Part shown: piece by piece, positions 2,030 to 60,244 of the stretch
Layout of the letters: every line of letters starts with the position of its first letter
Numbering within the stretch: position 1 is the stretch's first letter
Origin: Octopus vulgaris
Taxonomy: Eukaryota
NCBI GenBank assembly: GCA_951406725.2
Contig: OX597817.1
Span: 94,612,001 to 94,676,000, forward strand
DNA: 64,000 nt
Direction of reading: 5' to 3'
Translations under genes and position numbers: made by a program
The notes under the pieces: model-generated
Database searches by the model: none
Seen by the model: the letters and a program-made list of their open reading frames with translations, nothing else
Told to the model about the DNA's origin: nothing

Positions 2030-2842
2030 CATATCCAACTTACACAGATTACAAACGACAGAGAAATTTGAAGGTGTAGAAGAAAGGTGTTATAAGTTTA
2101 ACAGCTGTTTCTCAGTGCTTGGAAATTCATGATAATGTTACAGATGTAGTTCATCTCAATATGCGGTCGTAATGGATGCAATCAACATAGGATTAATGAG
2201 TCTATTAAGGGATGTGGTAGTAGAGGTGGAGAGTTGGGAGATGAATAGGATAGATAGTAATTGAACTGTAATCAGTTTTGTTTGGTTTGTGTATAGGTGT
2301 CGAAGTTTAGGTAAAATAGCTATAGAATTATTGGAAGTTCAGATAGTGAGAAAGGAAATGGCAAATTTTGGAGGGAATAAAAGTGTGTAATTCAGTGACA
2401 GAGGGCAATTACTAAAGCATGTAGAAAAGTATGAGAGAAGATAGAGGGAGGTAGACAAAATGGGGGTGGGAGTTGGTGGTAAAGATAGCAGTGGCTAGTA
2501 CTGTAATGAATGTGGGTTGGTATTGGAGGTGGGTAGTAAGGTATGCAGAAGTGTATGAAATTGAATAGAGAGGGAGGAAGCAGTAGATAGGTTAGTATCT
2601 AATTGAGTGGGGTAGATTTAGGTGCTATCGTCTCTCGGGAGATAGCACCTAAATGTATGATCTCTACCCTGATGACGTAAGCTCGTCTTATCCTATGTTG
2701 ATTGCATCCATTATGCCCGCATATGGAGATGAACTACATTTATCAACATTATCATGGATCTTCAACCCCCTAGAACAAGCTGTTGGACTTATAACACCTT
2801 TCTTCTACCCCTTTAATTTTCTCTGTCGTTTGTAAGTTGGAT
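2030..2842. mobile_element. Old fold-back PLE pLTR-like insertion with degenerate long-stem-II hammerhead
   Basis: About 2030-2200 is a diverged reverse complement of about 2681-2842. Junction hairpin TTTAGGTGCTATC/GATAGCACCTAAA at ~2617-2653. CTGATGA at 2669-2675 and a GAAACAGCTGTT-like motif at 2773-2784 (+) and ~2099-2111 (-). Confidence 0.65.
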
Positions 2843-2975
2843 CTATTAATATGAATATCATCGACTGAAAGTCTTCGTCTTTTGCTTTCTCTCGTTTTTC
2901 GTGTATACATATACACATATTTCACGCTTCATTCCCAAACTATTATATTCAATTTGACATACAATGACATACAAT

Positions 2976-3045
2976 TGTGTGTGTGTGTGTGTGTGTGTGT
3001 GTGTGTGTGTGTGTGTGTGTGTGTGTGTGTGTGTGTGTGTGTGTG
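2976..3045. repeat. (TG)n microsatellite
   Basis: Seen directly. Confidence 0.95.
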
Positions 3046-5244
3046 TTTATGTGTGTGTGCATAAATATGCATACATATTTGTGTGTTGGTGTGTAGGTGT
3101 GTTTAAACGTATTACGTCCATAAAAAGTTAGCCCCGGATGAATATTGCAGTTAATGTACCATTTTGCGATGTAGTTACATTAAGTATAATACACAGATGT
3201 ATATTTTAATCTAATATTACTTCTGTAGCACCCAACAGACTTTTATTCAGCCGGGTGACTTATTGCAACACTAATGATTTTTGAATCAGCTTTCCTATAT
3301 CAGCGACGACAAATTTTGGCTAGGCATACAGTTGCCAGTGGGTATAAGCTACAAGCAAAACCCAACGAGGCAGATATACTCATCTAGCATCTTCGCCACC
3401 ACTACTAGACGATTTTATACTTCTGTTTTAAACTCAGTACGCTCATGAGAGATATTTTCGCGATGTATCTGCATTAAATAAGACATACAGATGTGCGTGT
3501 TTGTGTGTGTGTGTAGGAATAACTAACAGGACCTCTTTGTGCACCTGTAGCCTTTAACATTTTAAATATTTTTCATATTGAATTTCGCTTGATTGCATTG
3601 AGCTCTTTTAATAGTGTGTGGTCAATCTTCTTCATAGAGAAGTATTAACTAAAATTGTTTGTAGTGTGAGCATGTGTATAATACGTGTGAGTGTGTGTGT
3701 GAGCGAGTGTGCGTGCGCTAATGTGTGTGTGTGAGTATATGTGTATGCGTGTGTTGATGGATGGATTAACGGATGGATGAACGAATGGATATATGTATGT
3801 ATATAAGATTATGTGTTTGCTTGCATATTTTTCAGTGATTAATATTGGCGAAAGATATAAAATTGGAAAGAAAACCGATAAACCGGTGTTTGAAAACGAT
3901 AGATCTTGAGGGATATTGATATTTGCTTTATACGAGTTACTGACATTCTTTGCCGCTCTACCCGCCAAAAATACATTCACTCTGTAATTCACTCGTTGGA
4001 TGCCGTGTTTATCATTGCTTCCACTGTATCTTTGCATTATAAAAAATAGAAGCATTAACATAACCACTACTACTAGCAGCAGCATCTCTAAACCAACACC
4101 ACCACCAACATGACCTACCCATACCGCAGTTAACACTGTCCCATATTTTATCACAGTAGTTAAGAAGGTAAAAGCACAAAGCATCCATTTTGTTTACTTT
4201 CATAATTAGGTTTCAGTGAAAACAACTTGGTGGTGGTGGTCTTTGTTTTTTGCTATTTCATCTTTGCAATATAGCTGCCTCAATAGAATATTAAGAGTTG
4301 TGTAGTTTGTCATTAACACTTCTTGTAACGTGGTGATTCTGTCTCAAATATTTTTGTGTAAAGCCTCATAGAAACCTCTAATGTTTAATCGATAACACAC
4401 TAAACAACAGAAAAAGAAAAGATCTGTGGCGGAGCATTTAGATTTTGTTCTTGCTGTTGTTACTATTAATGAATAAAAACCACAGTGTATGAGGGATGGT
4501 GTGTCAGTGTGTATGTTCATGTGAGTGTGTGTGTGTGTGTATGTGTGTGTAAATGTGTGTGCGTGTATGTGTGTGTGTGTGTTTATTTACATGTGTGATG
4601 TTAAATAATGATGATACACATCGTGGTGCTTGTGTTGCAAAGGCCACATATTTGGGTTACTACTTCAAACATCAGTTTGAAATTTATAGAAAAGCAAACA
4701 TCAGTAATTTATTGTCTATAATCCCTCCACTTTAACTTTCACAAACTTTCTTAATATGCAACACCAGCTGCAGCATCAGAAGCAGCAGAGCCAGCTGTCG
4801 TGTCTTTGTAAGGATTTTTGTTTCTTTATTCGTCTGTCAATGGTTTCAGTTTTTCCAGTGAAAAAAACTTACCGGCTTTGACATCGAAAATGGGAACAGT
4901 CCATTATTTGAAGGAATTTAAAGGATCATAGAACAACCTTTTCTAATTGGATATAAATATCAATAGTAGAGGATTTATTTGACTATATCTTTAAATAATT
5001 AAAAACTGGGAGAGAGAGAGAGGGGGAGGACATTCAGCGTTTTATCATTTATTTCACATTTTTTGTTACTGCTGACCAACGTTTTTTCGTTTATTGTCAA
5101 TCTTTTCCAATCTGGGTAGTGGTAAGATGCTTGGTGAAAATAGGGTGGCGATGTGAACACTCTTTTTATAACCCATTCCCCACTAAGAATTAGTTGCCCC
5201 AAATATCAAACATAATGAACAGAAACACTACAAATAATGACTTC

Positions 5245-5860
5245 AAATTTTGGCACAAAGCCTGTAGTTTTGAGGTGGGAGCTGAAGTCGATTACATCGA
5301 CCCCAGTGTTCAACTGGTACTTATTTCATCAACCCTGAAAGGATAAAAGACAAAGTCGACTCCGGTGGCATTCGAATTCAGAACATAACGACGGACGAAG
5401 TACCGCTAAGTATTTTACCCGACGTCCCAACAATTCTGCGAGCTCGCCGCCTTACACTATACAAATAATCCTTTCTACTAAAGGTAGCAGGCCTAAAATT
5501 TGGCGGGAAGGGACTAATTGATTATATCGACCCCAGTGTTTCACTGGTACTTATTTTATCGACTCCGAAAGGATGAAAAGCGAAGTTGACCTCGGCGGTT
5601 TTTGAACTCGTAACATAGCAACAGGCGAAATATCTATTTCTTTAGTACCCACAAGGGGCTAAACACAGAGAGGACAAACAAGGACAGACAAACGGATTAA
5701 GTCGATTATATCAACCCCAGTGCGTAACTGGTACTTATTTAATCGGCCCCGAAAGGATGAAAGGTATAGTCGACCTCGGTGGAATTTGATCTCAGAACGT
5801 AGCGATGGGCGAAATACCGCTAGGCACTTCGTCCAGCGTGCTAACGATTCTGCCAGCTAT
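5245..5860 (-). mobile_element. Three adjacent copies of tRNA-derived SINE family B (core CGACCCCAGT..ACTGGTACTTATTT..CCGAAAGGATGAAAGGCAAAGTCGACC)
   Basis: The core repeats at ~5290, ~5520 and ~5700. Each copy has a B-box-like GTTC(A/G)AA segment on the minus strand. Confidence 0.8.
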
Positions 5861-6499
5861 ATAATGAACTCTATTATCTATCGACCCAACTTACAGATTA
5901 TTCATATTTCAAAAGTAATTGAGAACACCAATTAACGATATTCCCCCAAACCTTTATTTTTATCTTCTCTCTCTCTCTCTTCCCCCCCTCTCTCTCTCTC
6001 TCTCTCTCTCTCTCCCTTGAATGAATGAATGAATGAATGAATGAATTGAATGAATGACCACCGTATCTACTAGATATCTATTCTGCTTCGGCTACACCTA
6101 TTGGCTCACTAGAATTCTCTTCTTTTTTTTTCTTCATCAAAACGTTCTGGAAGATTAGCTGTTGTCTTTCGTCAGTGGAGAATTTGTCTACATACGGGAT
6201 TCCCCGGTGTACGGACACTTTGCGACATCGCGGTATATCAACTTTATTGTATGTATCCTCAGTCAAATCAAATCCCATCAGACCGATGAATTCTAACAAG
6301 AGACTGAAATTAGCAAACAAATTAGTCTATTGCTCGTCGTCAGTTCAGGGTAGCCAGTAAAAATTAATTATTATTACCAGTGACCCAGCACAAAAGACGA
6401 ATTAGTCATGAGTTTATCCCCTTTCTGTGTATCTAGCACTCGCTTCTTTATTTGGAAGCCTTTTAATGTATTTATATATAAATAACGTATAGTCTTTCA

Positions 6500-58755: not shown

Positions 58756-58978
58756 TATGTATATATATGTATATATATATATATATGTATATATATATAT
58801 ATATATATATATATATATATATATATATATATATATATATATATATATATATATATATATATATATTATATATATATATATATGTATGTATAAGGGTGGA
58901 AAGGAACACACGAGTTGATATATATGAAAAAACAAGTCAAAAATAGAAAATGCTAAGATAATTTTATAGTGAATCTTT

Positions 58979-59016
58979 CAGTACCGGTTTCGGTCATTTT
59001 GAGACCTTTTCAACTG
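58979..59016 (-). ncRNA. Minimal hammerhead ribozyme, U3-A8 variant
   Basis: Reverse complement of 59283-59320. Confidence 0.82.
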
Positions 59017-59282
59017 TAACGATTAAATAATTAAATTTAGAAAAATTAGAAGAAAAGTTTTTTTTAAAAGAATATTTCTATAGTAGTGTTCAGATATAAG
59101 TGGCATTCTGCCTTTCTCAGACTCCCTTGTTTGCACTTGTGTGTTCGACCTCGAACACACAAGTGCAAACAAGAGAGTCAGAGAAAGGCAGAATGCCACT
59201 TATATCTGAACACTACTATAGAAATATTCTTTTAAAAAAAACTTTTCTTCTAATTTTTCTAAATTTAATTATTTAATCGTTA

Positions 59283-59320
59283 CAGTTGAAAAGGTCTCAA
59301 AATGACCGAAACCGGTACTG
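59283..59320 (+). ncRNA. Minimal hammerhead ribozyme, U3-A8 variant
   Basis: CAG-UUGAAAA-GGUC(UCAAAAU)GACC-GAAA-CCGG-UA-CUG. Confidence 0.82.
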
Positions 59321-60244
59321 AAAGATTCACTATAAAATTATCTTAGCATTTTCTATTTTTGACTTGTTTTATATATATATATATATATATGTATATATAT
59401 ATATGTATGTATATATATATATATATATATATATATATATATATATATATATATATATATATATATATATATATATATATATATATATATATATATATAT
59501 ATATATATATATATATACTACTTATAAGAAAATTCTTTCAGTTTCCAGAGATGGCATACTTCAAAACAGTTTTCTTTCGTTGTTTTTGCGGATTCTTAAT
59601 TCCTGCTGCGTGATGTTTTCAGATATGACCTATCTTCCCGGCAACTCGCTGTCACACGTCCATGCTGTTTGCTATTCGCTGCAGTGTTCTTGTTTCTGTT
59701 TATTCCTATATGTTTTTGGATGAGTGTTACTTAGTAGTGAGTGTAAATCATAAATCAACTATTTCATAGTAGTCATGATTATCTGTCCATTGTTCTTTCT
59801 TTTTCTGGTTGATTTTGTTATGGATCCGTCTTTACAGCGTTTGCTTTTTGACAGAACATGGCCCATGGACATGTGTAGATTTTTTTTTTTTTCGTAGTTA
59901 TAATTATTATGGATGTATAAGCAAGGGACCGAGAAGAAACAGCAATTTGCATACATAGAGAGGTATTGTATAAATATGGACGTATATGTAATAAAAATTT
60001 TACTCATAGACTTGCCGTTTCGTATAGAAATATTGCAGTGCATGTGTCTACATTTTTACGCGCGTGTTGTTGTAGCGGCACATCTGAAGGAAACTATTTT
60101 TATATATACTCCATATAAGAAAACTCTTTCAGTTTCCTGAGATGGTTTACATTAAAACAGTTTTGTTTCATTGATTTTGCAGTTTCTTAATTCCTTCTTC
60201 GTGATGGTTTCAGATTTGATCTATCTTCCCGGCATGATGTTTGC

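Follow-up and report, generated by a model that had tools for sequence, protein, structure and literature searches.

The window analysed here, a stretch of 64,000 nucleotides, comes from the genome of Octopus vulgaris (2.8 Gb in 227 contigs), in which (TA)n, (TATG)n and (GATA)n repeats abound, and carries several hammerhead ribozyme-bearing insertions, each made of two copies of one sequence lying head to head. The six reported by an earlier, sequence-only reading are named E1 to E6 by coordinate order, and an added seventh E7. Judged from sequence, they are classed as Penelope-like elements (PLEs: Hydra-type E4, the two Neptune/Nematis-type elements E5 and E6, and Poseidon-type E2) and retrozyme-like derivatives (E3 and E7). 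We propose, with a probability of roughly two in three, that such insertions of PLEs and their passengers arise when both target strands are cut, one source RNA is copied twice, and the copies are then joined.

Inverted insertions in the window

Comparison of the window with itself, with simple repeats masked beforehand, recovered all six reported inverted duplications with the polarity claimed for them, a minus left arm and a plus right arm (Table 1). The earlier count of at least six cases held for those six but overlooked E7; among the boundaries given, the ends of E2 match the target duplication, while the one-sided tails of E4, E5 and E6 and the extensions of E1 had been omitted. Four insertions, E3 to E6, do lie in (TA)n or (GATA)n, as described. 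The arms are identical at 118 of 140 aligned columns in E2 (84%; 12806-12944/13797-13934), at 126 of 146 in E1 (86%; 2049-2193/2690-2835) and at 709 of 721 positions in E5 (98%); they reach about 99% identity in E6 (58930-59369, with two private substitutions) and 99.8% in E3 (15862-16275/16435-16848), and show no mismatch in E4 (32077-32798/34209-34930). A range from diverged to perfectly matching arms is present; E6, with its two substitutions, is not perfect. Arm identity is plausible as an age series, albeit an uncalibrated one.

A relaxed type I descriptor of the hammerhead returned 10 rows, compared with 0-3 sites in each of 20 shuffles of the sequence. Eight of these rows fall in the arms of E3 to E6 (E3, E4 and E6 on both sides, E5 on the left only), and without exception the left-arm motif reads minus and the right-arm motif plus; the other two represent a single site at 33898 within the E4 open reading frame. 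In E2 the right arm has a canonical core by eye and the left core is mutated; in the right arm of E5 stem I is damaged; and E1 retains only the 3' half of the motif on the left and a broken GAAA on the right. Because its own hammerheads are damaged or partial, E1 was oriented from its relatives, three of four of which are head to head. E3, E5 and E6 use a U3-A8 core, and E4 has a putative hammerhead with a CCGAAGA core. No hammerhead appeared among the 150 of 174 matches listed from an Rfam scan of the window, those listed being only microsatellite-driven miRNA matches. The damage in E5 consists of small private deletions in both strands of stem I (43690-43760), the remaining 550 nt being nearly identical between arms; this variant was considered as a subfamily and rejected, being present in 0 of 248 fetched loci.

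Table 1. Positions in the window of the inverted insertions and their parts
Feature	Position	Strand	Description
E1 left copy	2033..2193	-	Old family; hammerhead 3' half only; distal part resumes at 1075-1445 past later insertion
E1 spacer between copies	2194-2650
E1 right copy	2651..2961 (end approximate)	+	CTGATGA core at 2669, GAAA broken
E2 target-site duplication	12758..12769 = 13929-13940	+	12 bp
E2 long copy	12770..13796	-	Penelope/Poseidon-type reverse transcriptase (RT) thumb and GIY-YIG remnant; 36-nt tail 12770-12805
E2 short copy	13797..13928	+	Tailless; hammerhead core CTGAAGA at 13843
E3 left copy	15862..16437	-	1.6 units of 363-nt non-coding hammerhead repeat (retrozyme-like); end at site A
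E3 right, shorter copy	16435..16911	+	End at site B; 63-nt tail 16849-16911; 3-nt junction overlap
E7	25602..26045	left 25602-25892 minus; right 25891-26045 plus	Head-to-head, 480-nt hammerhead repeat; left longer at 3' end
E4 long copy	32013..34211	-	Hydra-type PLE; 620-aa open RT and GIY-YIG frame 32358-34220; tail 32013-32076
E4 short copy	34209..34930	+	Tailless; identical to left arm; hammerhead 34840-34890
E5 left copy	42314..43025	-	3' untranslated end, Neptune/Nematis-type PLE (5.83-kb unit); tailless
E5 right copy	43026..43831	+	With tail (43798-43831); hammerhead stem I has private deletions
E6 left copy	58893..59148	-	3' end of second Neptune/Nematis-type PLE; tail 58893-58918
E6 right copy	59149..59369	+	Tailless; central junction near-blunt

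Within the left copy of E1, a short interspersed element (1446-1853) is adjoined by an inverted, 93% identical copy of neighbouring DNA (896-1076/1855-2033), which may be a captured flank. E2 interrupts an older, broken RT-coding element (11591-12769 and 13929-14200, with a YIDD motif at 11787-12419), probably another PLE, and its 3' untranslated part holds by eye a tRNA-like stretch on the minus strand (12990-13060). Both arms of E7 are truncated inside the ribozyme, within helix II; its unit is low-copy (9 exact matches genome-wide), with a canonical hammerhead and a long helix III. Broken frames resembling long interspersed elements at 44457-49465 and 9898-10698, the former with an RVT_1 match at 45351-46079, bear no relation to the inverted insertions.

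Element families and their abundance

The insertions had been called unrelated. Their arms share only one 18-nt DNA match across 15 pairs, but four of them (E2, E4, E5 and E6) are PLE families, so that the families are distinct as DNA and, from their coding sequences, have one enzyme class in common. E5- and E6-family proteins share 57% identity across 776 aa, and 20-23% with that of E4. The spacer of E4 holds a minus-strand frame of 620 aa with RT followed by GIY-YIG (motifs recognised by eye); the protein has 666 relatives, nearly all unnamed, the best 120 at 42-52% identity. The Hydra clade is marked by a length below 3 kb, RWK, DKT, a CxCx5C linker and a (TA)n target (PMC8557442). E4 is assigned to the Hydra type by such motif marks: its family has a 2,589-bp unit, RWK, DKT and the linker CSCRNKELC, and is flanked by microsatellites. 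Longer copies of the E5 and E6 families have frames of 776 and 784 aa with EADKGS (DKG) and a C-x4-C-xx-C linker before GIY-YIG; DKG together with a CX2-5CxxC linker fits Neptune and Nematis jointly, and the label used here spans both clades. Upstream of the RT frame these two families have a separate open stretch of 378-480 codons (L183, L200), and the E5 family has a long simple-sequence 3' region that includes a 44-nt tandem repeat. E2 is a 3' fragment only, an RT thumb and GIY-YIG remnant with a broken frame in which no zinc-finger linker was seen; Penelope/Poseidon elements have no such linker between RT thumb and GIY-YIG. A Pfam search gave no match for E4 or E2.

Source copies occur in tandem, with unit lengths of 2.59 kb, 5.83 kb and 363 nt, and tandem units resembling pseudo-long terminal repeats with type I hammerheads were found at L150 and L183. 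The 363-nt unit of the E3 family is non-coding, carries a hammerhead per unit and forms arrays of up to about 5 copies; E7 has a non-coding 480-nt tandem unit with a type I hammerhead. Both have the tandem organisation of non-LTR retrozymes, which derive from PLEs (bioRxiv 10.64898/2026.07.22.740005), and on that ground are termed retrozyme-like.

Exact patterns from the hammerhead region gave 759 matches genome-wide for E3, 3,427 for E4, 679 for E5, 1,789 for E6 and 3,605 for the E2 family; the initial patterns for E2 and E1 were too private, with 2 and 1 matches. Two-strand clusters were fetched for E3 (14 of 14), E4 (23 of 24), E5 (22 of 29) and E6 (20 of 22), some being omitted as too long and the complex E6 locus L203 serving solely as reference; the sampled loci were all taken from the first parts of the two largest contigs. 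Two arms are present in at least 69 of 115 loci (E3 13/19, E4 17/22, E5 11/21, E6 9/23, E2 family 19/30), as counted by hand with partners lacking the pattern allowed; this is a lower bound because 1.5 kb per side was read. Arm polarity was scored on opposite-strand neighbours within 10 kb among the first 100 listed matches of the E3 to E6 families and is not random: 90 pairs are minus-plus and 2 plus-minus (p = 2e-24). Both tail-to-tail pairs lie in multi-insertion clusters, and by eye the matches listed for the E2 family include 5 minus-plus pairs and 1 plus-minus. Later insertions were seen to settle in the (TA)n flanks of older ones, also across families (L196, L086, L203 and G000:C1:70441303-70447435). 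This builds nested palindrome clusters, from which the few tail-to-tail pairs come.

The suggestion that PLEs are a systematic source of hairpins is supported, in the sense that they are a frequent source of inverted repeats here. Extrapolation from the first 30 matches per family on one contig gives roughly 5,000 two-armed insertions in 2.8 Gb for five families. Where transcribed, they are a likely, putative source of double-stranded RNA.

One tail per insertion and a shared source

In 102 of 102 two-armed loci, window copies included, a single arm bears the 3' tail (E4 24/24, E5 23/23, E6 20/20, E3 15/15, E2 family 20/20); tail variants in four E5 loci escaped a stricter regular expression. 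The arms of a locus end at two different fixed sites, A and B, 35-65 nt apart with B further 3' (one of the 15 E3 loci terminates 60 nt past site B). In tandem source copies (L150, L183 and the E3 arrays) A and B are both internal positions, and the arms have their 3' ends 40-235 nt downstream of where the ribozyme is predicted to cut. The ribozyme cut was therefore rejected as the origin of these ends, and the two internal sites argue against the earlier idea that priming takes place on the RNA's 3' end. In the four microsatellite families (E3 to E6), both sites show TA-like bases matching the target, an impression gained by inspection rather than a statistical result. Reiterative addition of GATA at the right end of E4 is unneeded, since GATA units flank both sides, and telomerase-style repeat addition found no support.

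The tail is independent of arm length. Among 67 E4, E5 and E6 loci it is on the longer arm in 31, on the shorter in 22, and on one of two equal arms in 14; in E3 loci it is on the longer arm in 5 and on the shorter in 10, as in the window, where the shorter arm of E3 extends 63 nt beyond the end of the longer. Over all unequal loci, the longer arm has the tail in 36 of 68 (p = 0.72 against one half). In the 32 loci with the tail on the short arm and the spacer in the long arm, neither arm contains the other, so that one could not simply have templated the other.

Both ends of 24 of 24 E4, 23 of 23 E5 and 19 of 20 E6 loci are embedded in (TA)n or (GATA)n; in the E2 family, where no linker was seen, this is so in only 1 of 30, and 12 of 20 loci show target duplications 8-13 bp long. 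That the palindromes are fold-back artefacts of reads or assembly, or independent insertions into one microsatellite, is very improbable: the mirror halts at the element ends, the flanks differ, one arm alone has the tail, divergence between arms reaches 16%, both arms sit within single target duplications, and independent insertions would give random polarity and tails. Contigs of four other runs, all of which contain the E4 family, never bridged the E4 junction, as artefacts would predict, but these contigs collapse repeats, come from other samples and are uninformative on the point.

The two arms of a locus also share source variants. Compared over 150 nt leading to the hammerhead and a further 33-55 nt downstream, in loci with sufficiently long arms (17 E4, 22 E5 and 15 E6), arms of the same locus differed on average less than arms of different loci: 1.0 vs 2.0 in E4, 4.3 vs 6.4 in E5 and 3.5 vs 10.0 in E6 (permutation p = 4.5e-4, 5e-5 and 5e-5). 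The signal is clearest in the E6 family, which has subfamilies and whose variants were found 45 times in both arms and 7 times in one. Over whole arms, the partner was nearest or tied-nearest in 20 of 32 loci (E4 10/17, E6 10/15). Conversion between arms is disfavoured as a general cause of shared variants, because the old arms of E2 (84%) are no closer to each other than its right arm is to other loci (83-93% for most matches), an argument from old arms that leaves young copies aside. If the two ends were primed on separate RNAs, or on two repeat copies within a single tandem transcript, made from one source locus, shared variants would likewise be expected where a single locus is active per germ cell, and the source elements are indeed tandem. 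We nonetheless regard it as quite doubtful, since independent complexes would not impose one A end and one B end in every locus; a single complex would be needed, and two RNAs within it would be a variant of our proposal that the present data do not separate.

Junctions between the arms could be anchored in 38 of 67 loci, 18 with overlap and 20 carrying an insert, 1-230 nt long; some of the inserts may be mismatches to the reference. Inspection for microhomology, as the earlier reading had advised, showed an overlap of at least 2 nt in 11 of the 18 insert-free junctions, where 16% would be expected by chance. Several inserts resemble by eye short copies of adjoining arm sequence; such copied inserts occur in microhomology-mediated end-joining. 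The 5' ends of the arms cluster as well: 7 of 30 in E3 fall at unit positions 228-245 (p = 5e-4, in a range picked post hoc), where a long stem predicted around the ribozyme has its 3' foot. Upstream of the pattern end, 13 of 48 E4 arms stop at a distance of 40-77 nt and 11 of 40 E6 arms at one of 159-189 nt. These shared hot spots may reflect either stalling of RT at stems or the 5' ends of the RNA, and they explain most equal-armed cases, E6 of the window included.

The fold-back named by the sequence-only reading is the less likely mechanism. In it, a cDNA begun at site B would fold back at its tip and be copied to site A, the palindrome later losing an asymmetric central piece. By itself this accounts for both the one-tail rule and the shared variants, and palindromes are known to undergo central deletion. 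Self-priming has also been proposed for PLE palindromes (PMC3846280). It would, however, require a second event in the 32 of 68 unequal loci with the tail on the shorter arm, many of which have arms more than 99% identical. Loci with equal arms concentrate at stop sites used family-wide; in three of them (L145, L193, L194) 16-58 nt of filler separates the tips. Overall, we consider fold-back unlikely.

Several observations weigh against two-ended priming. As fold-back would predict, 14 of 67 loci have arms within 30 nt of equal length, mostly at shared stop sites but in about four loci elsewhere, and 28 private variants are present in both arms (111 in one); any one of a rare source, fold-back and conversion could yield these. 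The shared variants of the E5 family were 3 in both arms and 18 in one, in a noisy alignment; in 12 of 32 loci the partner was more distant than an arm from another locus; anchoring failed at 29 of 67 junctions; and no insertion intermediate or empty site was seen. In vitro, the anole PLE protein showed no start-site difference between the two strands and no start homology, so that one site per end was not reproduced (PMC11167929).

On balance, two-ended priming is favoured by the polarity, the single tail independent of arm length, the shared source variants, the target duplications, and the microhomology or filler at the junctions. The enzyme of the element would make a staggered cut, leaving a 3' end on each target strand. 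Of the two ends, a dimer would prime one at A and the second at B, sites that are internal and AU-rich; the cDNAs would halt separately, often at a stem or near the 5' end of the RNA, and host end-joining would connect the two tips. We infer the dimer, the use of one RNA and the joining by the host. Extension of both cut ends on the element RNA can only give a minus left copy and a plus right copy inside a single target duplication, and the tail rule implies that the two DNA ends use different start sites. The earlier suggestion that both target ends are extended and the two cDNAs joined is thus supported, but not its priming at the RNA 3' end. More tentatively, and falling a little short of being probable, two-ended priming may be the default way in which endonuclease-bearing (EN+) PLEs of different clades, and the retrozymes carried by them, integrate, with an asymmetric dimer assigning A to one DNA end and B to the other on a single RNA, nearly every insertion born inverted, and thousands seeding double-stranded RNA in the genome. 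The original LINE-1 twin-priming model reportedly also had both break ends primed on one RNA.

Comparison with known systems

The architecture and its head-to-head polarity have been published (PMC3846280, PMC8557442, PMC4209133), and inverted pseudo-LTRs and microsatellite bias are established as had been said (PMC3846280, PMC8557442); the findings are real and recurrent, and mostly known. Head to head is described as the most frequent PLE arrangement, with self-priming on an antisense template proposed (PMC3846280), and an inverted 5'-truncated copy with a one-sided tail is drawn in Fig. 2 of PMC8557442, where the forming mechanism is called undefined. Published complex insertions of EN+ PLEs have in common with those described here an inverted truncated copy beside the 5' end, (TA)n bias and target duplications, but their tail of 30-40 bp is often at one end only, whereas here it is on one arm in all loci and reaches 63 nt (PMC8557442, PMC3846280). 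The accessible text of those accounts gives no counts and suggests self-priming or endonuclease resolution for the tail, in contrast to its independence from arm length here. What is added is the one-tail rule, that independence and the shared source variants, each quantified, and these data constrain a mechanism left open in PMC8557442 for tandem and inverted PLE structures.

Among PLE hammerheads and retrozymes, the U3-A8 core has been described and opposite-strand pairs noted (PMC4209133); that core, a palindromic helix III and opposite-strand pairs 100-700 bp apart are common to both sets (PMC4209133; bioRxiv 10.64898/2026.07.22.740005). Retrozymes are tandem, non-coding, PLE-derived units, to which the tandem units of E3 and E7 add the full PLE insertion signature (bioRxiv 10.64898/2026.07.22.740005). 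Beyond the works cited, no two-ended priming model for PLEs was found in the literature searched, which largely excluded subscription papers and supplements, so that an earlier model may exist, for example in the Penelope reviews of 2005-2008.

The anole Poseidon PLE protein cuts and extends both strands in vitro from two internal starts that bracket the tail; ribozyme cleavage is dispensable and dimerisation is predicted (PMC11167929). The system described here, as proposed, resembles it in two-strand extension, internal tail-bracketing starts, independence from the ribozyme and a dimer, but in the accessible text of that work the inverted product is not modelled and the starts have no homology (PMC11167929), whereas here, in the four microsatellite families, both end sites look by eye to carry TA-like bases that match the target. 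Sharp predictions for this existing in vitro system follow from the single-tail pattern, from its lack of dependence on arm length and from the source variants common to both arms. The nearest mechanism is LINE-1 twin priming, in which both break ends are primed on one RNA and the cDNAs lie head to head (10.1101/2024.12.14.628481). The arms of LINE-1 are adjacent, non-overlapping parts of the RNA, whereas here both arms start close to the same 3' region and overlap fully, and such two-armed insertions are the majority.

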